From the NCBI GenBank assembly GCA_965200155.1, contig CBDATR010000024.1, positions 352,001 to 416,000 on the forward strand: a stretch of DNA of 64,000 bases, given 5' to 3'. Of the stretch, positions 8,898-45,748 are shown one piece after another. The notes beneath the pieces are model-generated. The model saw nothing but the letters and a program-made list of their open reading frames with translations. It was not told where the DNA came from and ran no database searches. This DNA is from Nitrosopumilaceae archaeon (lineage in GTDB: Archaea; Thermoproteota; Nitrososphaeria; Nitrososphaerales; Nitrosopumilaceae). Each line of letters opens with the position of its first letter. Positions within the stretch are counted from its first letter, which is position 1. The position numbers and the translations under genes were made by a program.

Positions 8898-9776
8898 TTG
8901 GCGCTTAGAGAGATACTGGAGATTTCAAAACCTCGTATAGTGATATTACTGGTAATTACCGCGGTGGCTTCCCTGTATGGTGCCAGTACGCTGGCGCCGG
9001 GGGATCACCAGGTCGCCTATGTCACATACATCCACATCGCGGTGGCCGGAGCCTTGGCCTCCGCTGGTTCTAGCGCCCTCAACCACTACTATGATAGGGA
9101 TATAGATGCCACCATGTCCAGGACCCGTTCTAGGCCCATACCTTCCAGCCGCATGAGTCCCCGGGCTGTTCTTGTTTATGGCCTAGGCGTATCCTGCGTT
9201 TCTGTGGTGTATGGGTATCTGCTGCTAAATGCAGCTTCGGCCTTCTTTATCGCGCTGGGTATATTCTCGTATGTAGTCATATACACCATTTGGCTGAAGC
9301 GGAAAAATACCAGCAATATAGTAATAGGCGGGATAGCTGGCAGTGCCGCATCTTGGGCAGGGTGGGCCGCGGCCACCGGAACAATGGATTTGCTGGGATT
9401 TTTGGTGGGGTTCTTGGTATTTGTGTGGACGCCGTCGCATTTCTGGTGTCTGGCGATGAAGATACGCGACGAATACCAGCAAGCCAATGTGCCAATGCTG
9501 CCGGTAGTGGTTGGTATGCATAAAACATCTGTCTACATATTGGCCAATACCCTGATACTGGTGCCGTACTCTCTGGCGCTATATGCCTTTGGTATGGGTC
9601 TTGTATATCTGGGAATTGCCGCCGTATCTGGTGGATTGATGCTCGCATACCACTACAAACTTACAAAGAACCCAACTTCCGACTTTGCCTGGAAGGCCTA
9701 CAAAGTCACCGCGCCCTACCTGACTATAATATTTCTGGCAGTAGTGCTGGATGCCGCCCTGCACATACGTCTGTAG
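8898..9776 (+). CDS. ctaB: Protoheme IX farnesyltransferase (heme o synthase)
   Basis: KPRIV, NHYYDRDIDATMSRTRSRP, WTPSHFW, ANVPMLP motifs. Confidence 0.95.
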   Translation: MALREILEISKPRIVILLVITAVASLYGASTLAPGDHQVAYVTYIHIAVAGALASAGSSALNHYYDRDIDATMSRTRSRPIPSSRMSPRAVLVYGLGVSCVSVVYGYLLLNAASAFFIALGIFSYVVIYTIWLKRKNTSNIVIGGIAGSAASWAGWAAATGTMDLLGFLVGFLVFVWTPSHFWCLAMKIRDEYQQANVPMLPVVVGMHKTSVYILANTLILVPYSLALYAFGMGLVYLGIAAVSGGLMLAYHYKLTKNPTSDFAWKAYKVTAPYLTIIFLAVVLDAALHIRL

Positions 9777-9838
9777 ACGTTTAGGGCGCCATATTGGAAT
9801 GCTACATAAAATGAGATCCAAGTTTGACCGTATGTTTT

Positions 9839-9930
9839 GTATGAGTTCACCTGTGTCTAAATTTACGCATAACTGATCGCTACAGTTAATGTGATTTGTG
9901 CATAAGATTCCGGAAGACGTGAACTCATAC
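9839..9930 (+). mobile_element. 92-bp MITE, family 1 (TIR GTATGAGTTCAC)
   Basis: 12-bp TIRs; 8-bp target duplication tatgtttt. Confidence 0.95.
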
Positions 9931-10057
9931 TATGTTTTAGCTCTCTCCAAACCTGTTTTTGTTAGCAGGCATGGTTGCACATTGCGTCCTCTTGGCAATG
10001 TGAATGTCGTGTAGTGCCAGTACGAGATTCAAATGACTTGATGCCCCATCTGTTACT

Positions 10058-10348
10058 CTAGATATCTGCCCTGGGGAAGCTGGCTTCGTACTCTTTCTCG
10101 CGCATGCGCATCTGCTCCTCTTCCTGCTTGTTCTCTTTTATGGCTACCACTTCTATTTTGCGCGCATCCTTGGTGAACCATGTAACGGTTATCAGTCCTG
10201 TTATCTCTAGGTCCAGCAGCATCTTGTTGAATCTGTCTGCTGGCATGGTGATTCCGTCTTTGGCCAAGGACTTTGCCAGCTCTTCGTCTGTCAGTGATCC
10301 GGAATTCTTTATCTTTTCGTATGCCATATTGCGAAGGGGAATGGTCAT
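10058..10348 (-). CDS. Small winged-helix-like conserved archaeal protein
   Basis: 96-aa ORF coupled to cdc48; FNKMLLDLEITGLITV wing-like segment. Confidence 0.75.
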   Translation of the reverse strand: MTIPLRNMAYEKIKNSGSLTDEELAKSLAKDGITMPADRFNKMLLDLEITGLITVTWFTKDARKIEVVAIKENKQEEEQMRMREKEYEASFPRADI

Positions 10349-10349
10349 T

Positions 10350-12512
10350 TTAGCCGTAGAACACCTTGTCTGTTTCTTTGTTCATTATGTTTGAAATACT
10401 TTCGCTTATGCGGGCGTACCACTGGCTCATGTCAGGGGTTATGGAGGGTTTGGCTCGCGTAAGGGCATAGACAAAGTCGGCGTTTGTTATGTGTGCCTGG
10501 TTATTGCGCATGGCATGTATGGCTGCCTCCCTGCACAAGGCGGCCAAATCCGCGCCGGTATAATTATTTGTGGCCACCGCTATCTCCTGCATATTCACAT
10601 CATCCATAAGGGGCATTTTGCCGGTAAGTATACGAGCTATCTCAATTCTCTCCTGCTCGTTTGGCGCTCCTACATGCAGTAGTATGTCTAGGCGTCCTGT
10701 CCTTATGAGTGACGAATCCAACACATCCGGCCTGTTGGTTATTCCAATGACCGCAACGCCGGGAATCGTACCCTCCTCTATCTCGGTAAGCAGCTGGCTG
10801 AGTACGGTCTCGCTGGCACCGCCCTCCCTGTGCCTGGCCAGCGAGTCTAGCTCGTCAAATATTATGACGCAGGGTGCAGAGGCTTTGGCTTTTCGAAATA
10901 TCTCCCGTATGGCCTTCTCGGACTCTCCCATCCACTTTGAGAGGATCTCAGGACCACGTATCAGAATCATGTTGGCCCCGCTCTCAGTTGCCATGGCCCG
11001 GGATACAAGGGTCTTGCCACATCCCGGCGGACCATACAACAGTGCTCCCTTGGGTGGCCGTATTCCCATCTTGGTGAACTTGGATGGTTCTCGCATGGAT
11101 ACCACAAGATTGTTGGCAAGATCCTCCTTAACCTGGCTTAGTCCTCCAACATCTGTCCAGTGTATCTTGGGCTGCTCAACGTAGAACTCCCTCATTGCAG
11201 TGGGTACCACCTCGTGCATGCCCTGGTGGAAGTCGGACAGTCTTATTTGCATACACTCTAGTACATTGGTGGGTATCTTCTCAGACTCCAAGTCGATATG
11301 TGGCAGATAGCGGCGTATGGCTCGCAGGGCCGCCTCCCGGCACAGTGATTTTATATCAGCGCCAGTATAGCCGTGCAGCTCCGAGGCGAGCTCCTTGATG
11401 TTTACATCCTCTGCCAGAGGCATGCCCCGTGTATGTATATGCAGTATGTCCTGGCGCCCGTCCGTATTTGGTACTGATATCTCAAACTCCCGATCAAAGC
11501 GTCCCGGTCGCCGTAGTGCCGCCTCTACACTGTCGGGGCGATTGGTGGCGCCTAGCACCAGAACGTTGCCCCGCTCATCGAGCCCGTCCATCAGGGCTAA
11601 TAGTTGGGCCACTACGCGCTTTTCCACATCCCCGTAAGAGTCCTCCCGCTTAGGCGCGATGGCATCTATCTCGTCAATGAATATTATGCTGGGTGCATTC
11701 TCCCTTGCCTCCTTGAATATGTCACGAAGACGCGCCTCGGTCTCGCCGTAATACTTGTTTACAATCTCAGGACCATTAATGGAATACATGTTGGCGTCTG
11801 ACTCACTGGCTAATACCTTGGCAATCAGTGTCTTCCCGCATCCTGGTGGTCCGTACAACAGGACCCCGCTGTGAGCCTCCACTCCCAACCTCGCAAAGAG
11901 CTCGGGATGGCGCAGGGGAAGCTCCACAATCTCCCTCATGGCCTTTATCTCGTGATAGAGACCCCCCACTTCCTCGTATGTGATACGCGCCTTGCGATCA
12001 ACAGCCGCCTCTGGCGATATACTGAGGCTGGTGGACTCATCTATCCGTACCACTGCGCCAGGCGTGGCCTTCTCAAGACGCAGGAGTATGGGGCTGCCCA
12101 GTATCATAACGGATATCTCATCGCCCACTATAAGGGGCAGGCCGCTCAGCCGTTTCTTTACAAAATTTGTAAATTCCGTATCTGCCACTACAGTGCCATT
12201 TACCGGAACAAAGATTACCGAGCGTGCTGTCTTGGCAGTCGTTTTCTTGACCTTTACAGTATCATTGAGAGAGACGCCCATGATCTTGCGGGTTTGTCCG
12301 TCTATGCGGATGACGTCGGGCATTTTTTCGTCCTCGTCTGCAGGCCAGGCGATGGCGCAACTTGACCGCATACCTGTTATCTCAATTATGTCTCCTGGTG
12401 CTACATTAAGATAGTCCATGGCATCCGGGCCCATGCGCGCCCGTTTCTTTCCCACATCGCGATGCTTTGCCTCGCCCACATGCATTTGTAGGCTACCATT
12501 ACCATTGTTCAA
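10350..12512 (-). CDS. cdc48: CDC48/VAT family AAA+ ATPase
   Basis: N-domain plus two AAA modules (GPPGCGKT twice, FIDEID / FDELD, RRPGRFD). Confidence 0.97.
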   Translation of the reverse strand: MNNGNGSLQMHVGEAKHRDVGKKRARMGPDAMDYLNVAPGDIIEITGMRSSCAIAWPADEDEKMPDVIRIDGQTRKIMGVSLNDTVKVKKTTAKTARSVIFVPVNGTVVADTEFTNFVKKRLSGLPLIVGDEISVMILGSPILLRLEKATPGAVVRIDESTSLSISPEAAVDRKARITYEEVGGLYHEIKAMREIVELPLRHPELFARLGVEAHSGVLLYGPPGCGKTLIAKVLASESDANMYSINGPEIVNKYYGETEARLRDIFKEARENAPSIIFIDEIDAIAPKREDSYGDVEKRVVAQLLALMDGLDERGNVLVLGATNRPDSVEAALRRPGRFDREFEISVPNTDGRQDILHIHTRGMPLAEDVNIKELASELHGYTGADIKSLCREAALRAIRRYLPHIDLESEKIPTNVLECMQIRLSDFHQGMHEVVPTAMREFYVEQPKIHWTDVGGLSQVKEDLANNLVVSMREPSKFTKMGIRPPKGALLYGPPGCGKTLVSRAMATESGANMILIRGPEILSKWMGESEKAIREIFRKAKASAPCVIIFDELDSLARHREGGASETVLSQLLTEIEEGTIPGVAVIGITNRPDVLDSSLIRTGRLDILLHVGAPNEQERIEIARILTGKMPLMDDVNMQEIAVATNNYTGADLAALCREAAIHAMRNNQAHITNADFVYALTRAKPSITPDMSQWYARISESISNIMNKETDKVFYG

Positions 12513-14585: not shown

Positions 14586-16193
14586 GTGTGCCCGTCTCCT
14601 ACCTGTGTGAAGCGCCCTACCCGTAGCTCAGGTCGAAAGAAGCTAGGCATAATAGTATGCGCATTCTTTGGGTTCATACTACTCTCGTCCACTATCTTGT
14701 TTGCTGTTCCCAGTCCTACTCCCTCTGGAATGGAGGCTCCGGCACCCGATCAGATTACCATTACCGGAACACCACAGGATAACTATCCGGACGCGCAACG
14801 GGCTCAGTTCTGCGGCGTTGCCCCGCCACAGTCAAATACGTATATCCGGGAGTTTGAGATCCCCACTGAATGCACGCAGCCTCTGGCCATTGTAACTGCC
14901 CCGGATGGCGGGGTATGGTTTGCTCAGTCAAACACCGGTAACTTGGCCCGCTTTGATGCAACAACAGAGACGTTCACGGAGTTTTCCAACCCCTTGTGGG
15001 AGTCCGGTCAGCGTTCCATGATCTGGGGACTGGACTATGCTGACGGCTATCTTTGGTATGGTGATGAGGCCAACGACTCTGTGTGGCGCTTTGATACTGC
15101 CACCGAGACATATAGGCAGTTTCCCCTGCCTGGATCAGGAAGCATATTCCCCCAGGTGTTACAAGTTGTGGATACTGACATAATACTAAATGACCTGACC
15201 GGAAATACCATGGTGGTTCTGGACGCCTCTGATATAGAGAGTGGGCTGGAATACTATTCTGTCCCCTCCAATGTTACTGATGCGGTAACAGCGGGCTTTA
15301 CCCTAGACAGGCAGGGTATAGCGTGGTATACAACATGGATCCCGCAGGGAGGCGGCTTACTGGTGGGCCTGGATCCTGAAATAATCAAGAGGCAAGATGG
15401 TCCTGATCCCGTAATAACCACACTACCCCCTGCCCTGCGTACACCCAACGGTATCGCGGTGGATCACGGAGGGAATGTGTGGCTGGCAGATACCAGCAGC
15501 TCATACTTCTTCATGTATGATGCGGCTACGGGCGACTTTTCGCAGTTTGTTACCAGTACGCCGGATGTATTCTCCTATGGTAATGTTACAGGAATAGTTG
15601 GTAACCCCATATCCCGGCCTTACTGGATGCAGGTGAATGATAATGGTATGATAGTCTTTAACCAGCAGACCGCCAACCGCATCGGGGTGATGGATCCGCG
15701 CACCGAGAGCCTTGTAGAATATTCCATACCATCTAGGAATCCACTATGGAGTGACTGTGGAGGTGATCCACTGTGCGGTATCTCGCAGGCACTAACCTTT
15801 ACGGTTGATGGCTCAGATGTCTGGCTTACCCAGTGGGCTGAGAACAATGTCGCCGTACTGGATACCTCAATCCCCTTGCCCTTTGATATAACACTGGAGA
15901 CGCCCCGGGTACAGTTATCTCCCGGCGAGACTGTAATCACATCATATGTGGTAGAGGCGAATGTGGGCAGAACAATAGCCATAGAGCCAATTCAGACGTA
16001 CACGCATTCATTTCTGTATTCACAGACGCATGATCCCCTTCAATTGTACCGACTTGACGGTACCCAGACCATAACACTGGACATTACGTCTTTGCCCAAT
16101 GCGGTGCCTGGTGAGTACAAGATACTGCTGGGAGCAAAGTCCGGAGATGTGACTATCTCGAAGTTTGTCACAGTGGATATAGTATCCCCGTAG
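14586..16193 (+). CDS. Membrane-anchored Vgb/streptogramin-lyase-like beta-propeller protein
   Basis: N-terminal TM segment; repeated P.gI..d.dG.vWf propeller motifs. Confidence 0.8.
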   Translation: MCPSPTCVKRPTRSSGRKKLGIIVCAFFGFILLSSTILFAVPSPTPSGMEAPAPDQITITGTPQDNYPDAQRAQFCGVAPPQSNTYIREFEIPTECTQPLAIVTAPDGGVWFAQSNTGNLARFDATTETFTEFSNPLWESGQRSMIWGLDYADGYLWYGDEANDSVWRFDTATETYRQFPLPGSGSIFPQVLQVVDTDIILNDLTGNTMVVLDASDIESGLEYYSVPSNVTDAVTAGFTLDRQGIAWYTTWIPQGGGLLVGLDPEIIKRQDGPDPVITTLPPALRTPNGIAVDHGGNVWLADTSSSYFFMYDAATGDFSQFVTSTPDVFSYGNVTGIVGNPISRPYWMQVNDNGMIVFNQQTANRIGVMDPRTESLVEYSIPSRNPLWSDCGGDPLCGISQALTFTVDGSDVWLTQWAENNVAVLDTSIPLPFDITLETPRVQLSPGETVITSYVVEANVGRTIAIEPIQTYTHSFLYSQTHDPLQLYRLDGTQTITLDITSLPNAVPGEYKILLGAKSGDVTISKFVTVDIVSP

Positions 16194-16195
16194 CA

Positions 16196-17386
16196 TTGTC
16201 AGTACCTGATATAGACAAAACAGTGGGCATTACCGTATATGGTACAGAGACGCCCGGTACCGGCGGCAGCATACGGGGGAGTACAGAGGACTTTGTGGTG
16301 GATGAAATCCTGTCTGACAGGTATTCTTCCCTTATACGGGATAATGGGAGATATGCAGTATATAGACTGGTAAAGAACGGAATTGATACCGGCCACGCAC
16401 TATCTGACATATTTCGTACACGACGTCTGCGACTCAAGGCTCTGGGACTAAAGGATGCATTTGCACGCACGACTCAGTACGTGTGCTCGAATGGGACCGG
16501 TTCCGGCATAGAACACATGAGGACTCCACGATATGAGATAACCCTGCTGGGATACACGGATCGTCCCATAACCAAGAAAGCCATGGTGGGCAACAAATTC
16601 CGCATACGGGTGCGGGGCCATACCGGCACACTGCATGTATCCTGCGATATTATACCCAATCATTTTGGCTATCAGCGCTTTGGATCCCGCCGTCCCGTAA
16701 CGCATCTGGTGGGAAAGGCCGTTCTGCTTGAAAATTTTGATGAGGCCATACGACTAATACTGTATGAGACCTCCCCGCATGATCGGTCAGAGAACACTAT
16801 ACTGAGGCGCAAACTTGCTGAATTATCATATGATGAGGGGTTGGAGATTCTGCCCCGGGGTATGGATACTGAGCGGACAGTGTTACGCTCCCTGCATGAG
16901 TGCGATGATACGCGCGTAGCATTTATGACGATACCGCTTTATCTGAGGCGGCTATATGTACAGGCATATCAGTCCTACCTGTTCAACCTTACTTTGAGCG
17001 GCGTCATGCATGAAAATATTGATAGCACGATGCCTCATGATGGCGACATCTGTTTTGATAAGACTAGCCGTATTGGAAAGTGGGATGGATGGTCTCAGTC
17101 TCGCCTGGCAATTCCGCTGGTGGGCTATTCATACTACAAGAAGACTCGCTTTCATGGTGTTATATCGAATGTGTTGGAACAGGAGGAAGTTACGCCCAGG
17201 ATGTTCTATACCAAGCATGCCCAAGAGCTGAGCTCAGAGGGTGGGTTCCGGCAGGCAATACTGGAATGTACTGATTTCTCATCATCCGAGGATACTGTGG
17301 AGTTTGTATTGTCCCGCGGATCCTATGCCACCATGGTAATGCGGGAGATAATGAAGCCGCGGGATCCTATCACCGCCGGTTTTTGA
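16196..17386 (+). CDS. truD: tRNA pseudouridine(13) synthase TruD
   Basis: EDFVVDE, GLKDAFARTTQ, GNKFRI, PNHFGYQRFG, LSRGSYATMVMRE. Confidence 0.95.
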   Translation: MSVPDIDKTVGITVYGTETPGTGGSIRGSTEDFVVDEILSDRYSSLIRDNGRYAVYRLVKNGIDTGHALSDIFRTRRLRLKALGLKDAFARTTQYVCSNGTGSGIEHMRTPRYEITLLGYTDRPITKKAMVGNKFRIRVRGHTGTLHVSCDIIPNHFGYQRFGSRRPVTHLVGKAVLLENFDEAIRLILYETSPHDRSENTILRRKLAELSYDEGLEILPRGMDTERTVLRSLHECDDTRVAFMTIPLYLRRLYVQAYQSYLFNLTLSGVMHENIDSTMPHDGDICFDKTSRIGKWDGWSQSRLAIPLVGYSYYKKTRFHGVISNVLEQEEVTPRMFYTKHAQELSSEGGFRQAILECTDFSSSEDTVEFVLSRGSYATMVMREIMKPRDPITAGF

Positions 17387-18710: not shown

Positions 18711-18959
18711 GGGAATTATATATGAAAGTAGCACAGAAGAAGCGTATCGCTCCAACTAGGGACGAAAATGGAATGTAACCCGTTCCAGTCCAAGAATGGC
18801 GCTACGCGTAACTAGAATGATTCACCATTCCATGGAATAGAACCGGTTCCCTGGTTGAACTTGTTACACGACTTATTGTAACTATGCCGCCATTCCTGGA
18901 CTGGAAATCATTATTCTAGTGAAAGCCCTACTGCAGTGCTACTTTCGTATATAATTTCC
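18711..18959 (+). mobile_element. ~250-bp MITE, family 2 (left arm of composite transposon)
   Basis: 24-bp imperfect TIR gg(g/a)aattatata(t/c)gaaagtagcac; near-identical inverted copy at 22836-23088. Confidence 0.9.
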
Positions 18960-21498: not shown

Positions 21499-21946
21499 AG
21501 AACAATAAAAGGATTACGTGGTTGTCAGTTATATGTCACCTTTTGGTGATCAGAGCAGGACGCAATTCTCTTTATAGGTATACCATACCCGGATATCGTA
21601 GAAATGGGACCCACACTCCGGGTAAGGACGGGGATAACAGGGTAATCAGTCCATATTCAATCCATGTATTGCACTTGAATCCATGTACCTACTTTACAGC
21701 GCCAATGACAGGTATGTGTTTAATTGGAATCTTTTCCGCACGTAACGCATCCCAAATCTTTGGCACGCCCACAGCTGGTTCTTCGCCGCACATTGAAGGG
21801 TCTCTGATTCTAGCCGGTATTAGTGTGGTTTCCAATTATTGCCGCGCTAGATTGGGATTGTGTGGGCAGGAGACCCCCCTCCTGCGCGCCATGAGTGGAG
21901 AGGCAGGAATCCCATGCGGGACATATGTCAAAGATGAGCAAACTAG

Positions 21947-21968
21947 GGGACTTTTATCTAAAAGTCCA
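21947..21968 (-). mobile_element. 22-bp hairpin micro-element with 5-bp target duplication
   Basis: actag-[gggacttttatctaaaagtcca]-actag; same length and ends as the insert at 36554-36575. Confidence 0.75.
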
Positions 21969-22192
21969 ACTAGAAGGTAGCGAAAGGATGTAACAGGCGA
22001 TGATTAGTGGAGATATTCATGAAACCGTATTCAAGTGAGTGGACGTGACAGTCATAATCATGTATTAACATCAAAGACACCGTTGCAAACCTTGCTCTAT
22101 TCCCATACTGTACCTGCAATGACTAGGCGACTGGTGGGAAAAATCATTCCTGGACGCTCAGGTTGGATTGACCCGCAACAGGAGTCCAAACA

Positions 22193-22835: not shown

Positions 22836-23088
22836 GGAAATTATATACGAAAGTAGCACGGCAGTAGGACTTTCACTAGAATAATGATTCCAGTCCAGGA
22901 ATGGCGGCATAGTTACAATAAGTCGTATAACAAGTTCAGCCAGGGAACCGGTTCTATTCCATGGAATGATGAATCATTCTAGTTACGCGTAGCGCCATTC
23001 TTGGACTGGAACGGGTTACGTTCCATTCCACTTTCGTCCCTAGTTGGAGCGATACGCTTCTCCTGTCCTACGTTCGTATATAATTCCC
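22836..23088 (-). mobile_element. ~250-bp MITE, family 2 (right arm of composite transposon)
   Basis: Reverse complement of 18711-18959 with scattered substitutions. Confidence 0.9.
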
Positions 23089-31164: not shown

Positions 31165-32097
31165 TCAATAGTACGAAAAGTAAGTCCGCTTAGGATCCGG
31201 CGTACAGTAGTTCAGATTGCACAAGCCATATGGTAAAGAGAATAACAGAGGAATCACGACAAAAGAGGCGTTGCCGCCACCAAAATAGCTCAAGACCTGA
31301 AACAAGACACGTACGAAGATTGTGAACCAGAGAACGGGAACGACTCGAGTAAAGAGGGGCAGGCCCATGATACCAATCACCGCCACCCAGATACGAATGG
31401 TGACTGAAGCATATCACAAGGATCCCGCCGGAGTAGTACGTATTGCAAAGAGACTTAGACAGAATTACAATATATCGCGCAGTATATCGCATAATTAAAA
31501 AGAACGGTACGGCAGGATCATCACCTGCAAAGTCAGAGTGGGTACGCTATGAGCGTAAATATTCCAATGCAATGTGGCACTGGCATGTCATGAAAGATGA
31601 GCGCTTCAGGGGACTGAATCTCATAGATGATGCATCCAGGTGTATAGTCGGAGCGGCACTATTTTAGCATGCAACCTCAGAGAACGCCACTCTATTACTG
31701 AGATTGGCTATAGAACGATTCGGCGCCCCTGCATCTCGGATAACGGCGCGTGTTTCGTAGGACAATAAAAGGGCAAGAAAAGCTGGAAACCCACTATTCT
31801 AGGAAGAACTGCTGAATCAAGACATCATACTAATCAATTCCAGGTCATACCATCCACAGACAAATGGCAAACTGGAGCGCTTCCATGGAATGATTGAGGA
31901 CGAGATATGGCATTATGACAGTCTCCGGGATTATGTTGACTACTACAATGAGAGAAGGTTGTACTTCTCACTGGATATAGATAACGGCGAAACATCGCTT
32001 CAGGAATAAAAAGGCGACCCAGACAATTAGGGCAAATGATGCAAAATGGATGGAGCGGGATGCCAATGACTAGCGGACCGACTTTTCATACATTACA
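31165..32097 (+). mobile_element. IS481-family non-autonomous derivative, copy 1
   Basis: Imperfect TIR (tcaatagtacgaaaagtaagtccgct / tgtaatgtatgaaaagtcggtccgct); broken integrase-core ORF (RYERKYSN, DDASR, SDNG, HPQTNGKLERFH, YYNERR). Confidence 0.85.
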
Positions 32098-32149: not shown

Positions 32150-33562
32150 ATGGAAGAGTTTGACAGCCTGCTCCAACGACTGCTAGATTCCAGTCCGGAC
32201 CTGGATCGCGAAGATATAATGACTCGGATAAAGGAGAAGAAGCACAAGATTGGTGCCGGATACCTGACGGATCAGGGTGCTCTGTTCTTGGTGGCATCAG
32301 ATTTGGGCATACAAATCAGCGAACCACTGTCTAACCAGATAAGCCTGAAAGAACTCTACGCCGGGGCCAAGGATGTAACCCTCGATGCCCGTGTCATGAC
32401 AATCTCCCCGCCTCAGCAATACTCCCGCAGGGATGGCACGAATCATTATCGCCGTACCATGCTCATATATGATGCAGATACAGCATGTCAGGTAAGCATA
32501 TGGGATGATCACGCAAAAGATGACATACTAGATCAGTTGGCTCCTGGTGATACAATAAAGATTACCGGCGCATACATAAAATCTGACATAAGGGGTGACT
32601 GCGTAGTGAACTTGGGCGAGGGCTCGGAGGTATCTGCCGGTTCCGAGATGCCTAGCATTCCCGGTATTGATAAAATTGCCAAGGATGCAGAAGATTTGGA
32701 GGAGACCGACAGGAATGTTGTGATAACGGGTCTCTTGGATGGAATGATTACTACCATGAACTTTACCAGAAAAAGCGGACAGCCCTCTTCTGCACTAAGG
32801 ATGAGGCTGAAAGGCAGGAATGGCTCCAATTACCGGGTTGTGATATGGGGCCAGAATGACTCTGATATTCCCAAGATGATACCAGTCAATGCATCAGTCA
32901 AGCTTATCGGGGTACATGCACGAAAAACCAACTCAGGTCTGGAGATACATGGATCTGAGGCAACCATGGTGGATGTGGCAAGCCATGATTCACAGTCGCC
33001 GCTGGTTTTGCGCGTTTTATCCCTGTCTCAGGGTGATCGTGGCAGCGGAATGATACTGTGCGTAAACAAGGACAAGACCCTCTACTTTGTAACGGACGAG
33101 TCAGACCATCACAAGGCATGTAGGGAAGACGGTGTAGTGGAGCTTGTTCCCACAAAGACATTTGGCCAGTACGTCATTTTAGGTGGGGATTCCTACCTTA
33201 TTCCAGCCGATGATGACGGATCAATTCCGCGCCGAAACCAGCTCAGGACGCGTCTCGCGGACACCGACATAGGTGGAAGTTACTGCATAGAGGTGGTGGT
33301 TCTGCAGGATCCGGAGATTCGGGATATCCAGACCAGATCCGGCGAGTCCATTCAGCTATTGGAGATGCATGTAGGTGATGACACTGACCAGATGTGGTTG
33401 AAAGGATGGAGGACACAGGCGCGACTAGCTAGCAATTGCAAGGTGGGTGATAGGCTGTCTATAACCGGACTGAACGCGCGGCAGGGTTTGGAGGGTCGCA
33501 TTGACTTGGTGCTTTCGGCATATTCCTCAATAAACCCAATCACTGACTCCAAAACTTCCTAG
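32150..33562 (+). CDS. rpa: Replication protein A / multi-OB-fold ssDNA-binding protein
   Basis: GAGYLTDQGALFLVASDLG N-terminus; several OB folds (VGDDTDQMWLKGWR). Confidence 0.88.
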   Translation: MEEFDSLLQRLLDSSPDLDREDIMTRIKEKKHKIGAGYLTDQGALFLVASDLGIQISEPLSNQISLKELYAGAKDVTLDARVMTISPPQQYSRRDGTNHYRRTMLIYDADTACQVSIWDDHAKDDILDQLAPGDTIKITGAYIKSDIRGDCVVNLGEGSEVSAGSEMPSIPGIDKIAKDAEDLEETDRNVVITGLLDGMITTMNFTRKSGQPSSALRMRLKGRNGSNYRVVIWGQNDSDIPKMIPVNASVKLIGVHARKTNSGLEIHGSEATMVDVASHDSQSPLVLRVLSLSQGDRGSGMILCVNKDKTLYFVTDESDHHKACREDGVVELVPTKTFGQYVILGGDSYLIPADDDGSIPRRNQLRTRLADTDIGGSYCIEVVVLQDPEIRDIQTRSGESIQLLEMHVGDDTDQMWLKGWRTQARLASNCKVGDRLSITGLNARQGLEGRIDLVLSAYSSINPITDSKTS

Positions 33563-36233
33563 TCAGCACATACTGTCGCTCAGCCTCGTATATCTGCTGT
33601 AGTGTGTACTTTTGGTCTACCATGTTTCGCAGTATGCGCGCCCCGGTATCGGCACCTACTCCATACCCCGAGAGTACCAGCAGGGCAGTTGCACCAAACG
33701 TCTCTATGAGTGAGGATACCTTCCATGCCCTCTTGTATGCATGGCTCTCCTGCGCGCTGAGTCTTTGCCCCGCATACTTTTTTGATATTATCTTTGGCAG
33801 TTCATGATCTGAGTAAAAAGTGGCCGTGACCTGCCGGGCCTTGCAGTATGGGCAGGGTTGTATGGTCTTGACTTCCCGGGTTTCCATTACTCTCTGCCAC
33901 TTCCCGCATCTGGCGCAGACAAGGCGGTGCTTGGTCTTTTGCAGTCTCTCATACACTATGCCAAGTAGCTCTGGGTCTATCTGTGTTGATTGGTATTTTT
34001 TCGTTGTATGATCCAGTATGGGTTGGGCCAGCGATGATAATGTATCCATGTCCCTCCATTCCAGGGGAATGGCGCCATCCCTTATGCGCTCCAGCACAAG
34101 GCCGGTTCCCTCTATGTCATATTTGCCATGAAAGAGATCACGCAGGGCCTCCTGGACAATGGGTGTGCCCTTGTACCTCTCATACATGAATCGTGACCTT
34201 TTGCGGTCGTACACCTCATCCTTGCTTAATACGCCAAACTTTTTGCATGCCTGCCACACCCGCCAGTTGACGTTATGGGTGCCTGCCACCGATGCTATTA
34301 CAACCTCGCGCAAGTCATACTGATCCTGCAGTGCCTCGTATACGGCCGCCTGTGTTATTCTGCCCGGCGAGGTCAGGGCGATCCTGTATGCATCCGAGCG
34401 GGAGCGCACCACGCTGCCACGGGCAGCAGATATTATGGATGAAAGCAGGGCTGCCAGTGTAGCATTTATGCGTGTACCCATGCAGGAGTGTATTACGACC
34501 AGTCCCTTGGATCTTGTAGCCTCAATGATTATGGATACTGCCTGTATCTGGGCGGGTGGTCCCAGGGAGCGGCGCTCCTCCATGGTTCCCACTATGGCAG
34601 CGGTCTCCATATCAACTGACAGACTCTCACCCTCCCAATACGGTATGGCTATGTCTTGGCTTCTAGCTGGCTCCACATTAACCTGGAGTGCCTTCTCGTC
34701 TACGTCTACTATCCTCCACTGGGAACCGCGCAGTATGAATACACTACCTGCCTCCCCATTATCTCCTACAAAGCGCTGATCCAGACTGCCGATTGGGCGC
34801 TTGGCCGCCGTATCAAATACGCGAAACTTGAGAATGTCGGGGATAGTGGTCAAATTCTCCAAATGATACATGAAGGCCCGCCTCCCCAGCGTATATGTGG
34901 CACTGTCACGATCAAACACCACTATTCGCCGGGCGTCCAACACATCTAGCACATCATACAGGTCTTTCTCTGTAATGAGACGATATGGATATGCCTCGGT
35001 TACCGTGCTCAGGACCTGCTGCAGGGTCAGTGGCCCGCCAGTCTGGTACAGTAACCCTACCATGTGATGGGCCATTACGTCCAGGGGGGCGCAGTGCACT
35101 CTTTGGCTCTCAATACTGCCTTCCTGTACCCTTTTGATGATTGCGCGGGCCTCGTACATGTCGTCTTGGTGGTTTGCGACAATGAGTCCATGCGCAGATC
35201 TATGCCCGTGGTGCCTGCTCCGTCCTATGCGCTGTACAAGTTTTGAGACCTGCCGGGGCGATCCATAGTGTATTACAAGTTCCACATCACCAATGTCCAG
35301 GCCCAGCTCTAGCGAGGAAGTGCATACAACCATTCTCTCCCCTCCCTTTCGCAGGACTTCCTCTGTGTCCTGGCGAACCTGCTTTGAGAGGGATCCATGA
35401 TGCATGTCAACGGGGATGGCTGTTCTCTCCCTAAGAGTGGCTGCCAAAAGCTCCGCCTCACCCCTAGTATTGGTAAAGAGCAATACTGGCGACTTTATGT
35501 TACACTTTGTAATGTGCGCCACTATGGCATCGGACACATTTGTAATCTCCCCTTCCGCAAGAACAATCTCCACATTATACTCTCGCAGGGTTCTGTCCCT
35601 CACTATGCGGCACCGGCGATGCGTTCCGGCAACAAACTTTGCCGCCTGTTTGGTATTACCCAAAGTGGCTGACAGGCCTATCCTAGTTAGCGGATATGTC
35701 GTATTCTTCTGTAGTCGTTCCAGGGTTATGCTAAGCTGGGATCCCCGCTTGTTGGGCACTATCTCGTGGACCTCGTCTATAATGACCCATTTCAGTTTGG
35801 AGAGGGCTGAGAGCATCTTGGGCTGAGATAGCAATACAACGGCGGTCTCTGGGGTTGTAATCAGTATGTCCGGTGGCGACTTGGCTATTTGCTGCCTTTC
35901 CCTGGCTGTTGTGTCCCCGTGCCTCACCTTTATCTCTAGATTGTTATTCTCTGCATACTGCGTAATGCGCCTGAATATGTCCCGGTTAAGGGCGCGCAGC
36001 GGTGTTATGTAGAGACAGCGTATGTGGCCAGGCGCGCGGTCATGACTTATGCTGTGAAATACGGGAATCACGGCACACTCAGTCTTGCCGGAGCCGGTTG
36101 GCGCCACAATCACGGAGTCTTTCTTTTGTAGTATTTGCGGTGTCGCCATGTACTGTATCTGGGTTGGCCTGGCAAAACCCATGGATGCGAAGATATCTTT
36201 TACCTTACTGGTTATTCTTGTGTGCTCTTTCAT
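33540..36233 (-). CDS. lhr: Lhr-like DEAD/DEAH-box helicase with C-terminal Zn finger
   Basis: APTGSGKT, PLRALNRD, IIDEVHE, GLSAT, HHGSLS, TSSLELGLDIG, QRIGRS. Confidence 0.95.
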   Translation of the reverse strand: MKEHTRITSKVKDIFASMGFARPTQIQYMATPQILQKKDSVIVAPTGSGKTECAVIPVFHSISHDRAPGHIRCLYITPLRALNRDIFRRITQYAENNNLEIKVRHGDTTARERQQIAKSPPDILITTPETAVVLLSQPKMLSALSKLKWVIIDEVHEIVPNKRGSQLSITLERLQKNTTYPLTRIGLSATLGNTKQAAKFVAGTHRRCRIVRDRTLREYNVEIVLAEGEITNVSDAIVAHITKCNIKSPVLLFTNTRGEAELLAATLRERTAIPVDMHHGSLSKQVRQDTEEVLRKGGERMVVCTSSLELGLDIGDVELVIHYGSPRQVSKLVQRIGRSRHHGHRSAHGLIVANHQDDMYEARAIIKRVQEGSIESQRVHCAPLDVMAHHMVGLLYQTGGPLTLQQVLSTVTEAYPYRLITEKDLYDVLDVLDARRIVVFDRDSATYTLGRRAFMYHLENLTTIPDILKFRVFDTAAKRPIGSLDQRFVGDNGEAGSVFILRGSQWRIVDVDEKALQVNVEPARSQDIAIPYWEGESLSVDMETAAIVGTMEERRSLGPPAQIQAVSIIIEATRSKGLVVIHSCMGTRINATLAALLSSIISAARGSVVRSRSDAYRIALTSPGRITQAAVYEALQDQYDLREVVIASVAGTHNVNWRVWQACKKFGVLSKDEVYDRKRSRFMYERYKGTPIVQEALRDLFHGKYDIEGTGLVLERIRDGAIPLEWRDMDTLSSLAQPILDHTTKKYQSTQIDPELLGIVYERLQKTKHRLVCARCGKWQRVMETREVKTIQPCPYCKARQVTATFYSDHELPKIISKKYAGQRLSAQESHAYKRAWKVSSLIETFGATALLVLSGYGVGADTGARILRNMVDQKYTLQQIYEAERQYVLTRKFWSQ

Positions 36234-36355: not shown

Positions 36356-37313
36356 TGTAATGTATGAAAAGTCGGTCCGCTAGTCATTGGCATCCCGCTC
36401 CATCCATTTTGCATCATTTGCCCTAATTGTCTGGGTCGCCTTTTTGTTCCTGAAGTGGCGTTTCGCCGTTATCTATATCCAGTGAGAAGTGCAACCTTCT
36501 CTCATTGTAGTAGTCAACATAATCCCGGAGACTGTCATAATGCCATATCTCGTTGGACTCTTAAATAGGAGTCCCCTCGTCCTCAATCATTCCATGGAAG
36601 CGCTCCAGTTTGCCATTTGTCTGCGGGGGGTATGGTCTGGAATTGATTAGTATGATGTCTTGATCCAGCAGTTCTTCCTAGAATAGTGGGTTTCCAGCTT
36701 TTCTTGCCCTTTTATTGTCCTACGAAACACGCGCCGTTATCCGAGATGCAGGGGCGCCGAATCGTTCTATAGCCAATCTCATTAATAGAGTGGCGTTCTC
36801 TGAGGTTGCATGCTCAAATAGTGCCGCTCCGACTATACACCTGGATGCATCATCTATGAGATTCAGTCCCCCTGAAGCGCTCATCTTTTCATGACATGCC
36901 AGTGCCACATTGCATTGGAATATTTACGCTCATAGCGTACCCACTCTGACTTTGCAGGTGATGATCCTGCCGTACCGTTCTTTTTCATTATGTGATATAC
37001 TGCGCGATATGTATTATGTCTCAGTCTCTTTGCAATATGTACTACTCCTGCGGGATCCTTGCTGTATGCTTCAGTCACCATTCGTATCTGGGTGGCGGTG
37101 ATTGGTATCATGGGCCTGCCCCTCTTTACTCGAGTCGTTCCCGTTCTCTGGTTCACAATCTTCGTACGTGTCTTGTTTCAGGTCTTGAGATATATTGGTT
37201 GCGGCAACGCCTCTTTTGTCGTGATTCCTCTGTTATTCTCTTTACCATATGGCTTGTGCAATCTGAACTACTGTACGCCGGATCCTAAGCGGACTTACTT
37301 TTCGTACTATTGA
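36356..37313 (-). mobile_element. IS481-family non-autonomous derivative, copy 2
   Basis: Reverse-complement copy of 31165-32097; carries a 22-bp hairpin insertion. Confidence 0.85.
36554..36575 (+). mobile_element. 22-bp hairpin micro-element with 5-bp target duplication
   Basis: ctcgt-[tggactcttaaataggagtccc]-ctcgt; copies 1 and 3 of the host IS show the empty site with one ctcgt. Confidence 0.85.
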
Positions 37314-37366
37314 ACGCCATGAGTGTGGCACAAATTATATACAAACGAAAAAATCCAGACAATCTA

Positions 37367-38833
37367 ATGTATCGGGGCAGGCTCTCAGAGGAATTAAATC
37401 ATGATGCCAAAGAGTATGTATCATCCACAGAGTCCGATAAAAAAATACAGATTCATGACATACAGGGAACCCGGGTGCACGTACTCATGTTATACAAGAT
37501 AGGCATGATGCCAAAGAAGGATGCCGTAAACATACTGTCTGTACTGAGTGAGGCGAATACAACACAAGGCATTTCAGAGAAGGAATACAATGACGCGGAA
37601 GATGGACACGAACTTTTAGAGGCATATGTAGCTAGGCAGGCAGGCGAGTCTGGCGGCAGTATGCATGCAGGTCGCTCCAGAAATGACCAAGTAGCCTTGG
37701 CAATAAGACTGAAACTGCGTGCAGACACCATAATCATACAGAGAGGCATACTGGCCCTAGCTGAGGTACTGTTAAGACAAGCGGAGTCCAATACAGGTAC
37801 GCGCGTCCCGCTATACACACACCTGCAGCACGCCCAGCCAGGTCTTTTGTCACATTATATGATAGCATATATGGACGCACTTCTGCGAGACTACCACAGG
37901 TTCCAGGACATGTACGCGCGAATAAATGCCAGTCCACTGGGGGCAGGCCCGGTGGCTGGGAGTAGCTTGCCCATAGACAGGCTGCTTACCGCTGAGATGC
38001 TGGCCTTTCCTAGCATAGTGGAGAACTCCCTTGATGCCACCGGTACCCGAGACGGTATTTCAGAATTTGTCTCTTGTGTGGCCTTAATGATGGTTAATCT
38101 AAGCAGGATGGCCGAGGATTTTGTTTTGTGGTCCAGTGATGAGTTCTCGTTTATAGAATTGGGAGATGATGTGTCCTCACCGTCTAGCGCCATGCCACAG
38201 AAAAAGAATCCCGATGTCATGGAGTTGACACGGGGAAAAGCCGCGCGAGCAATAGGGGACTTAACCTCAGTTTTGGCCATACAAAAGGGCCTAGCATCAG
38301 GGTATGGCAGGGATCTTCAGGAGACAAAGGAGCCAGCATGGTCATCCTCAAGCAATGCACAAGGAGCGCTTAGTGTTATGATGCAAGTAATAGAGGGTAT
38401 GAAGATAAACCGGAACCGGATGGGCAAGTCTGCGCATAGTAATTCACTGCTGGCGCTGGGCATAGCAGAAGAACTTGTGCGCCGGGGCGTATCTTTCCGT
38501 GATGCACACAGGGTAGTTGGAGCCCTTGTACAAAAGGCGCACGCCATGAATAAACGGTTGGGAGATATGAACAAAGACGAGATAGAGGAGGCGTGTGATC
38601 TGGATGCTGCCATTGTGCTGGACGCAATATTGCATTGCGTGAAAAGCGACGTAGTATCATACACCAGCATAGGCTCCGCGTCCGTGGAACAGCAGCATCA
38701 CATGATAAAACATCGCAGAATAGTTCTTGCACGCCTCTGTGAGATGCTAGAGCAACAACAAACAAGTATCAGCCAAGGCATGTCAAAAACTGACAAAGAG
38801 ATAGAGGCACTGCTGTCCCAGCCCGCCGAGTAG
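37367..38833 (+). CDS. argH: Argininosuccinate lyase
   Basis: HAGRSRNDQV, YTHLQHAQP, SSAMPQKKNPD, YGRDLQE; start placed at MYRGRL, with TATA-like ttatat about 30 bp upstream. Confidence 0.96.
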   Translation: MYRGRLSEELNHDAKEYVSSTESDKKIQIHDIQGTRVHVLMLYKIGMMPKKDAVNILSVLSEANTTQGISEKEYNDAEDGHELLEAYVARQAGESGGSMHAGRSRNDQVALAIRLKLRADTIIIQRGILALAEVLLRQAESNTGTRVPLYTHLQHAQPGLLSHYMIAYMDALLRDYHRFQDMYARINASPLGAGPVAGSSLPIDRLLTAEMLAFPSIVENSLDATGTRDGISEFVSCVALMMVNLSRMAEDFVLWSSDEFSFIELGDDVSSPSSAMPQKKNPDVMELTRGKAARAIGDLTSVLAIQKGLASGYGRDLQETKEPAWSSSSNAQGALSVMMQVIEGMKINRNRMGKSAHSNSLLALGIAEELVRRGVSFRDAHRVVGALVQKAHAMNKRLGDMNKDEIEEACDLDAAIVLDAILHCVKSDVVSYTSIGSASVEQQHHMIKHRRIVLARLCEMLEQQQTSISQGMSKTDKEIEALLSQPAE

Positions 38834-44725: not shown

Positions 44726-45748
44726 TCAATAGTACGAAAAGTCCGCTTAGGATCCGGCGTGCAGTAGTTCAGATTGCACAAGCCAGATGGTAAAGAGGAT
44801 AACAGAGGAATCAAGACAAAAGAGGCGTTGCCGCCACCAAAATAGCTCAAGACCTGAAACAAGACACGTACGAAGATTGTGAACCAGAGAACGGGGACGA
44901 CTCAAGATGGGCAGGCCCAAGATACCAATCACCGCCACCCAGATACGAATGGTAACTGAAACATACGGCAAGGATCCCGCCGGAGTAGTACGTATTGCAA
45001 ATAGACTTAGACAGAATTACAATATATCGCGCAGTATATCGCATAATGAAAAAGAACGGTACGGCAGGATCATCACCTGCAAAGTCAGAGTGGGTACACT
45101 ATGAGCGTAAATATTCCAATGCAATGTGGCACTGGCATGTCATGAAAAGATGAGCGCTTCAGGGGACTGAATCTCATAGATGATGCATCCAGGTGCATAG
45201 TCGGAGCGGCACTATTTGAGCATGCGATCTCAGAGAACGCCGCTCTATTACTGAGACTGGCAATGAAACGATTCGGCGCCCCTGCATCTCGGATAACGGC
45301 GCGTGTTTCGTAGGACAATAAAAGGGCAAAAAGAACTGGAAACCCACTATTCTAGTATGAGTTCACCTGTGTCTAAATTTACGCATAACTGATCGCGACA
45401 GTTAATGTGATTTGTGTATAAGATTCCGGAAGACGTGAACTCATACCTATTCTAGGAAGAACTGCTGGATCAAGACATTATACTAATCAATTCCAGGCTA
45501 TACCACCCGCAGACAAATGGCAAACTGGAGCGCTTCCATGGAATGATTGAGGACGAGATATGGCACTATGACAGTCTCCGTGATTATGTGGACTACTACC
45601 ATGAGAGAAGGTTGCACTTCTCACTGGACAGATAACGGCGAAACACCACTCCAGGAATAAAAAGGCGACCCAGACAATTAGGGCAAATGATGCAAAATGG
45701 ATGGAGCGAGATACCAATGACTAGTGGACCGACTTTTCATACATTACA
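44726..45748 (+). mobile_element. IS481-family non-autonomous derivative, copy 3 (with MITE insertion)
   Basis: Matches 31165-32097; MITE at 45355-45446. Confidence 0.85.
45355..45446 (+). mobile_element. 92-bp MITE, family 1, nested in IS481 derivative
   Basis: 8-bp target duplication ctattcta; empty site in copies 1 and 2. Confidence 0.97.

Follow-up and report, generated by a model that had tools for sequence, protein, structure and literature searches.

Very short hairpin insertions with 5-bp flanking duplications in the genome of a sponge-associated Nitrosopumilaceae archaeon

How does a DNA hairpin of only 22 bp come to lie between two copies of the pentamer CTCGT in one copy of an insertion sequence (IS), when two further copies of this IS carry the pentamer once and no hairpin? 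The question was raised by a stretch of 64,000 nucleotides from a Nitrosopumilaceae archaeon (assembly GCA_965200155.1, contig CBDATR010000024.1, here C24:352001-416000), hereafter referred to as the window; positions with no contig label are those of the window. The genome is an incomplete assembly of an uncultivated sponge symbiont, with 2.38 Mb in 51 contigs, 46.6% G+C, and a completeness of 87.6%. The host is archaeal, as the archaeal small-subunit rRNA model scored 1437.6 bits over its full length, and the window stretch was also present in runs labelled as sponge metagenome from two studies. An initial annotation, made from the letters of the window alone, had described the hairpin as a mobile unit with a 5-bp target duplication and a proven empty site. 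Here, we report that it belongs to a family of hairpins inserted at many places in this genome, and we weigh the ways in which these could have moved.

The window hairpin and the ancestral state of its site

The 22-mer TGGACTCTTAAATAGGAGTCCC was found once in the window, and 100 shuffles gave no match. The 30 bases to its left were found again at 31900-31929 and 45553-45582, both on the minus strand. When the three IS copies were aligned, copies 1 and 3 were short by exactly 27 bases (22 + 5) and had a single CTCGT each, in agreement with the arrangement first described. The hairpin lies in the antisense strand of the IS, where it creates an in-frame TAA about 12 codons past the NGKLERFH motif.

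The host IS is about 930 bp long, with a rve-type DDE transposase (PF00665) and 25-bp imperfect inverted ends, and its copies all resemble pseudogenes, with 272-278 codons in the longest open frame. Among the 84 copies spanning the site, 37 were empty, 45 contained one hairpin, and 2 contained two hairpins in tandem. Homologues of the IS, 63-73% identical, were all empty in five related genomes (G002, G004, G005, G009, and G015), indicating that the empty state is ancestral and the 27-bp insertion derived; one gain of the hairpin in this IS is certain. The claim of a proven empty site therefore stands insofar as the IS lineage gained 27 bp, but the empty site is a paralogue and not the same locus before the insertion, and it speaks for the IS lineage rather than for a landing of the hairpin at 36549 itself. 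Since 47 of the 84 IS copies are filled, the window copy is most simply regarded as carried by the IS, or exchanged between IS copies, rather than as a local insertion.

A family of hairpins with duplicated pentamers

A genome-wide search with the pattern TGGACT-N6-16-AGTCCC gave 62 matches, and the elements found in this genome follow one plan: a pentamer, T (or TA, AA, or CA), GGRC, the stem, a loop, the stem again, GYCC, C (or nothing, or T), and the same pentamer. The hairpins measure 13-31 bp, with 22 as the commonest size, and lack coding capacity; only the stem base GGRC...GYCC is conserved, the rest of the stem and the loop being variable. A strict pattern of pentamer plus shell was matched 37 times in the genome and 0 times in the reversed genome. 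Moreover, when 5,656 perfect hairpins were scanned without bias, 5-bp flanking direct repeats were observed in 32 of the 127 with a GGAC or GGGC base versus 62 of the 5,529 others, and no other hairpin family stood out among those scanned. An automatic census under strict rules listed 114 copies at 32 sites, 13 of them with at least one identically flanked copy; about ten of its single-copy sites look like chance, and good sites such as C9:130690 and C35:40316 were missed. Beyond the host IS, related hairpins are thus present at at least about 20 independent sites, this number being approximate, and the same variants recur at unrelated places, as the initial annotation had anticipated in calling the hairpin mobile on its own. 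Contigs assembled from the runs of two studies bridge one hairpin locus; hence, the hairpin is not an assembly artefact.

The flanking pentamers were compared in 17 distinct elements aligned in register. They were identical in 10 of these and matched at 4 of 5 positions in 4 more. The target is CTNGT-like, with CTTGT as the commonest form, and CTCAT, TTTGT, and ATGGT also occur. The hairpin GGGCGGGTAAACCGCCC, of the form GGGCGG-GTAAA-CCGCCC, was found within a TnpB gene, at the motif YT|SQTC (CTCGT/CTCGT, about 13 copies), in a three-hairpin array (CTCAT/CTCAT), and at a third site (CCGGT/CCGGA); its GGAC twin was found at two more sites, and an ATGGT/ATGGT pair flanks a close variant of the GGGCGG-type hairpin. 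That one hairpin has different pairs of matching pentamers at different sites indicates that the pentamer comes from the target, i.e., that it is a true 5-bp duplication and the hairpin an insertion.

Subfamily E was found at no fewer than five unrelated sites, and subfamilies C and D, of the types TGGACTGTTTGAATAACAGTCC and TGGACTGGAATARCAGTCC, at about eight. The orientation of the hairpin relative to the pentamer was fixed, as judged by the loop of subfamily E (5/5 sites) and those of C and D (about 8/8), and the target consensus is itself asymmetric. Insertions were observed inside rve, TnpB, and IS1595-like reading frames. The hairpins also form tandem arrays, in which adjoining units have one pentamer in common; examples are two 31-bp units at C9:117771, different hairpins adjoining on C12 and at C5:64.4 kb, and the two IS copies with a double insert. 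At position 59656 on the minus strand of C5, a CCGGT-type left flank was joined via a hairpin to a CTGAT-type right flank, and this chimeric junction suggests recombination between dispersed hairpins.

The stem is under constraint. Within the 8-bp helix of the 17-element alignment, 90.4% of the cells were paired, versus 38-62% in slid registers. Four of the eight pairs change on both sides; position 3, for instance, went from A:T to G:C and position 5 from T:A to G:C, while position 6 showed five pair types. Doubly changed cells numbered 17, against 4.7 ± 1.7 in shuffles, none of 500 shuffles reaching 17, and a hairpin at C5:93123 has a T.G mismatch intermediate between subfamilies A and B. 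It is the hairpin fold, rather than its sequence, that is kept, and pairing is a structural requirement of these elements. The window copy is a partial departure from this rule, with a single A>G change that leaves a stem of 6 bp (folding as DNA at -4.6 kcal/mol; z of -1.8), versus 8-9 bp in the family consensus. The sister insert noticed near 21947 was recovered as a CTAGT-flanked hairpin on the minus strand, and this element, TGGACTTTTAGATAAAAGTCCC, folds strongly (-7.8 kcal/mol; z of -5.1).

We then searched other genomes. The motif was matched 61 times here, whereas each of 40 relatives had 0-4 matches, a level not above that of the control with the reversed pattern; a generalised form gave 36 matches here and 0 in 120 other genomes from 27 genera of the same family. 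Wider searches were performed only with GT-TGGACT-N8-12-AGTCCC-CTNGT, a form that other subfamilies would escape; 185,579 species genomes yielded 7 single matches and metagenome contigs 24, and viral contigs yielded none. No outside match resembled this genome; their stems were mostly the 5 bp imposed by the pattern, and matching flanks were found once, versus about 0.5 expected by chance. As judged from these pattern searches, the family appears lineage-restricted, and it was only found in this genome.

A palindrome inside a target duplication is exactly what two fused ends of an inverted-repeat transposon would look like. The hairpins could therefore be footprints or internal deletions of such a transposon with 5-bp duplications, the short forms being themselves immobile, and the varying centre length (13-31 bp) and the varying bases between pentamer and stem (left T, TA, AA, or CA; right C, none, or T) would agree with this. 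However, no element of 30-6,000 bp with ends of the hairpin family plus a duplication was found in a search across the 2.38 Mb. The initial annotation had named as its refutation that the motif be the internal-deletion product of a known IS with 5-bp duplications; apart from the absence of a longer element in this search, the IS and MITE (miniature inverted-repeat transposable element) families measured here make no 5-bp duplications, and on these grounds the hairpin does not derive by internal deletion from any IS now resident in the genome. Identical short variants, loops included, recur at unrelated sites, and independent imprecise repair would not give that; several distinct stems would demand several lost parents, and the tandem arrays of different hairpins with single pentamers in common also speak against this origin. 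We hold it to be improbable.

Weighing how the hairpins move

We favour, at about even confidence, a reading in which the hairpins are ultra-short, non-coding, non-autonomous, and lineage-restricted mobile elements integrated by a trans-acting enzyme that makes a staggered cut. This enzyme would not be encoded by the element and would recognise the hairpin via its GGRC/GYCC base, the recognised form being either snapped-back single-stranded DNA or an extruded cruciform. A CTNGT-like target would be cut with a 5-nucleotide stagger and the element joined in one orientation, after which gap repair would double the pentamer. Each insertion would then offer two copies of the target, and later insertions into these could build the tandem arrays. 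At the IS site, hitch-hiking on the amplification of the IS would mainly account for the 47 filled copies, with exchange among IS copies or precise loss coming later.

The distribution of the hairpin among IS copies bears on this reading and on two others. A maximum-likelihood tree of the 84 copies, built with the insertion site masked, requires at least 22 changes between filled and empty, with at least 8 forced by well-supported branches, the tree being a quick search of recombining paralogues. Flanking variants up to 14 bp from the site were found in filled and empty copies alike. The hairpins in the IS showed 2 variant calls in 990 bases, whereas variation reached 2.8% over the near flanks (30 bp) and 6.3% over flanks of 120 bp. 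A much more recent origin of the hairpin than of its IS copies was considered and lost strength, as this raw contrast of 0.2% versus 2.8-6.3% shrank to 2 events versus about 7.7 expected from the nearest 43 columns (P ~0.02), and we take it as suggestive only. After its gain, either a 27-32-bp module was moved again between diverged IS copies, or many precise losses took place, or both.

A state independent of its nearest flanking variants, and hairpins that vary so little as if recently spread between diverged IS copies, could also arise with no dedicated machinery: template switching or short-tract gene conversion via 5-base microhomology would copy hairpins to new CTNGT sites, and the IS mosaic would result from exchange between paralogues plus slippage deletions stimulated by the hairpin. 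The chimeric junction on C5, which runs through a hairpin, is in line with such copying. The right pentamer should then be a copy of the donor, yet where sites differ in their pentamers it agrees with the left one, i.e., the target. Nor would such copying explain why the GGRC base is conserved, why the orientation is fixed, or why the hairpins are confined to one genome among 120 relatives with similar repair, and the conservation signal is modest once counted as events against the nearest flanks. We consider this reading improbable.

The main rival is a single-strand peel-and-paste mechanism like that of IS200/IS605 or of the REP-RAYT systems (repetitive extragenic palindromes, REPs, and their associated tyrosine transposases, RAYTs); the other two alternatives explain less. 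An HUH/Y1 enzyme would bind the hairpin, cleave both 3' of the left-flanking CTNGT-like pentamer and at the right end of the element itself, and excise a circle of about 27 nucleotides that is reinserted 3' of another CTNGT; the flanking repeat would thus be the target plus the element end, and not a duplication. A hairpin of this size is feasible only as single-stranded DNA, the orientation is fixed to an asymmetric pentamer, and the scatter of filled and empty copies on the IS tree is what precise excision plus insertion would give. Moreover, the right pentamer was CTNGT in 47/47 filled IS copies, whereas the left one varied like the empty sites (CTCAT in 28, CTCGT in 19); the pentamers of the 37 empty sites were CTCGT in 20, CTCAT in 8, CTTAT in 4, CACAT in 2, and other forms in three. 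About 40 TnpB relics also attest to past residents of the IS605 type. Three points weaken this mechanism. Y1_Tnp had no match in the assembly; the same hairpin occurs with different matching pentamer pairs, as a target duplication and not an element-borne end predicts; and cleavage would fall one base from the foot of the hairpin, leaving no room for a guide sequence of the IS608 type. We regard it as rather unlikely.

Insertion by a staggered cut has its own difficulties. The flanks are unequal in 7 of the 17 aligned elements, and site A, the oldest multi-copy site, has no clean duplication when compared with its 3 empty paralogues. An asymmetric target together with a fixed orientation is unusual for DDE enzymes, and we know of no two-ended transposase complex for which a 22-bp duplex would not be too short. 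The right pentamer of the filled IS copies was never CTCAT, and this asymmetry with the left side is not accounted for by simple duplication. CpG decay was considered as the source of the left CTCAT and rejected, as the observed/expected CpG ratio of 0.82 and the 6.1% substitution of G in CpG across the IS cannot yield 28/47; context-specific methylation or the chemistry of insertion are possible causes. Among the indels listed from the assembled contigs of four runs, no gain or loss of 20-30 bp was present at five hairpin loci (C22:39500-59408), a result that is neutral on present activity, as assembled contigs hide rare variants. The moving enzyme was not found, with 0 matches to Y1_Tnp (PF01797), PF00589, and PF00239 in the 87.6% complete assembly, and the duplications measured for resident elements were 15-16 bp (rve IS), 8 bp (92-bp MITE), and 2-3 bp (DDE_Tnp_4 IS), not 5.

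A search of this genome for an accompanying enzyme, as the initial annotation had proposed, gave a broken reverse transcriptase gene and a CRISPR Cas1 in addition to the zero counts for Y1, tyrosine, and serine recombinases. The sole Cas1 is a 549-codon Cas4-Cas1 fusion at C9:68770-80000 (locus L058), adjoining a CRISPR array that exceeds 8 kb and whose 36-bp repeat (ATTTCCGCAGCCTAACGGTTGCGGCCTCATTGAAGG; period about 72 bp) is unrelated to the hairpins. Cas1-type integration duplicates a repeat length of tens of bp, and casposons duplicate 14-15 bp; spacer-like integration was rejected, since the duplication here is 5 bp and this Cas1 belongs to an ordinary CRISPR locus. A scar of site-specific recombination was set aside on the missing tyrosine (PF00589) and serine (PF00239) recombinases in this incomplete genome, which also speaks weakly against the earlier suggestion that a larger element had left one recombination site behind.

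Further identities were tried. An archaeal bulge-helix-bulge intron, in which a 4-bp helix formed with the flanks lies between two 3-nucleotide bulges, was rejected, as by-hand inspection of both strands showed no complementary 4-base helix in register. The window gave no Rfam family match between 36300 and 36800. The core of integron attC sites has the consensus GTTRRRY; GTTGGAC fits it on one side only, and this was taken as coincidence. A MITE with a parent IS agrees in its inverted arms and duplication (10/17 identical flanks), but no IS with the same ends and an equal duplication length was found. A link to the resident mobile families was ruled out by their duplication lengths and unrelated ends, including the 24-bp inverted ends of a TnpB element. 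REP/REPIN elements were discarded given the zero count for PF01797 in this 87.6% complete assembly, a foot of T-GGRC after CTNGT rather than GTAG/CGTC, and insertions inside genes.

A bolder form of the staggered-cut reading, which we advance as tentative, is that the hairpins are the smallest true transposons yet seen and move as single DNA hairpins, with only a GGRC base of 4-5 bp read on the folded strand, a 5-base stagger at CTNGT, and re-homing of the module between diverged IS copies. Such re-homing would explain 45 near-identical hairpins in IS copies that differ by several percent. The mover, not yet recognised as a transposase, would possibly be a nuclease or integrase from the host or from a virus that is specific to this lineage of sponge symbionts.

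The features of the window are given in Table 1. The disrupted shells of the initial annotation were recovered in part: the longer shell at 22996-23047 and a partial copy, a second copy of its GGACTGGAACGGGTTAC.TTCC stretch at 18770-18791(-), are present. The longer shell may be a disrupted or nested relative. IS copy 2 has two intact neighbours, an 897-codon Lhr-like helicase gene at 33540-36233(-) and an argininosuccinate lyase gene at 37310-38833(+).

Table 1. Positions of the hairpins, their flanking pentamers, and the related IS copies in the window
Feature	Position	Strand	Remark
Left target pentamer CTCGT	36549..36553	+	Single in paralogous IS copies
22-bp hairpin, subfamily A, TGGACTCTTAAATAGGAGTCCC	36554..36575	+	One A>G in the right arm versus the family consensus TGGACTCTTAAATAAGAGTCCC
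Right target pentamer CTCGT	36576..36580	+	Single in paralogous IS copies
IS copy 2, filled; rve-type DDE transposase pseudogene	36356..37313	-	PF00665 rve, E 4.4e-12
IS copy 1, empty	31165..32097	+	Single CTCGT 31900-31904, minus-strand read; sister of copy 2, Shimodaira-Hasegawa-like approximate likelihood ratio test (SH-aLRT) 98
Empty site in IS copy 3, single CTCGT	45553..45557	-	Alignment of three copies
Sister element, subfamily B: CTAGT, TGGACTTTTAGATAAAAGTCCC, CTAGT	21942..21973	-	Locus duplicated elsewhere in the genome (contig C5)
Longer GGACT...GTCC shell, CTTG-GACTGGAACGGGTTACGTTCCATTCCACTTTCGTCC-CTAGT	22996..23047	+	Inside a low-copy repeat

The genome as a whole is rich in repeats, with 21% of its bases in sequence occurring at least 3 times. 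The rve IS accounts for about 95 segments, an IS66-like family for 31, and TnpB relics for about 40. The rve IS duplicates an unusually long target of 15-16 bp at several copies (36356-37313 and 70 other copies looked at). The DDE_Tnp_4 IS has many intact frames of 390-414 codons and is probably still active. The 92-bp MITE, with ends GTATGAGTTCAC...GTGAACTCATAC, is present in 556 copies genome-wide, 390 of them exactly 92 bp, and 324 of the 556 are flanked by an exact 8-bp target duplication; an example outside the window is at C24 ~315482-315574, and for an archaeal genome of 2.38 Mb this number of copies is extraordinarily high. A TnpB-bearing element with about 25 copies has inverted-repeat ends of about 24 bp (TATAGCGSYCACCATAAGTCTTTG), not the subterminal hairpins expected of the IS605 type, and its TnpA was not found. 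Large multi-copy frames with an NPPY adenine-methyltransferase motif occur at C22:24690-28650 and about 10 other places, and may represent a mobile or duplicated restriction-modification gene. Finally, within locus L043 (C22:39500-59408), the segments 9297-10624 and 15937-17264 had about nil contig cover from two runs belonging to one study and low cover from two of the other, which suggests strain-variable islands.

Known small mobile repeats and what the hairpins mean

In the literature searched, a limited collection, we found no account of such elements in archaea, nor of the hairpin sequence. The proposal of an undescribed system goes too far as a category, since tiny mobile hairpins are in print for cyanobacteria and mitochondria; none was found there for archaea or with such an anatomy. 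The nearest analogues are the small dispersed repeats (SDRs) of cyanobacteria and the GC clusters of mitochondria.

SDR4-6 of Nostocaceae were reportedly described by Elhai et al. in 2008 (Genome Res 18:1484). SDRs are about 21-27 nucleotides long, form hairpins, are nested in other repeats, and can be missing from some copies of a sequence that is otherwise the same. Of two papers citing that work, one places the insertion of SDR5 precisely inside HIP1, after its 3rd and before its 4th base, and the other restricts SDRs to Nostocaceae. SDRs and the archaeal hairpins are both short lineage-restricted repeats with a defined short target and no coding capacity. In a comparison by description, not by sequence, SDRs are bacterial and target HIP1, whereas the archaeal hairpins have CTNGT, an explicit 5-bp duplication, and a GGRC/GYCC base.

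The yeast mitochondrial GC42 and the hairpin elements of fungal and sponge mitochondria have 42 nucleotides or arms of 15-18 bp, with putative short target-site duplications, of 2 bases (AG) in GC42, and their suggested helpers are endonucleases or reverse transcriptases encoded by introns (PMC4478555, PMC2800124). The likeness to our hairpins lies in short palindromes with stems under selection and changes in the loops, tandem or merged arrays, occasional insertion into genes, and a scattered, lineage-specific range. The mitochondrial elements reside in an organelle, are longer, and are GC- or AT-rich; in contrast, the hairpins here are in a cellular archaeal genome, have a 5-bp duplication, and coexist with only a broken reverse transcriptase.

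Other small elements were compared as well. MITEs are about 50-500 bp long and have ends in common with a resident IS, the 92-bp MITE of this genome being a classical example. Like MITEs, the hairpins are non-autonomous and combine inverted-repeat ends with a duplicated target, but they have 13-31 bp and ends common to no IS in the genome. PATE-like derivatives of IS200/IS605 insert 3' of a fixed tetra- or pentanucleotide, with no duplication and a cleavage site of their own at the right end; the CTNGT pentamer on the right of every filled IS copy agrees with this scheme, and the differing matched pairs around one hairpin speak against it. REPs are not known to make a target duplication. At 21-65 bp, REP hairpins have been counted among the smallest known repeats (PMC3184786), and REP/REPIN elements are mobilised in trans by RAYT (Y1) transposases (PMC3184786, PMC3733652, PMC3116915). 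A small hairpin, a conserved motif at its foot, and mobilisation in trans would be shared features, whereas REPs have a GTAG/CGTC tag, are extragenic, and are accompanied by a RAYT gene, and the hairpins here are untagged, lie inside IS genes, and have duplicated flanks, with Y1 not found.

The archaeal hairpins are among the smallest mobile DNA reported. The mechanism of tiny hairpins stayed open elsewhere, partly owing to ambiguous target duplications and empty sites, and the anatomy observed here is unusually clean, with a duplication of defined length (5 bp), a consensus for the target, one orientation only, a minimal conserved stem base, compensatory changes, arrays, and both paralogous and orthologous empty sites. 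They put the least that an integration machinery must recognise at about 13-22 bp, and the hairpin together with CTNGT provides a concrete substrate and target for biochemistry. In the genome of this symbiont, with its 21% of repeats, the hairpin shows how such an element can both inactivate transposase genes and ride on them.

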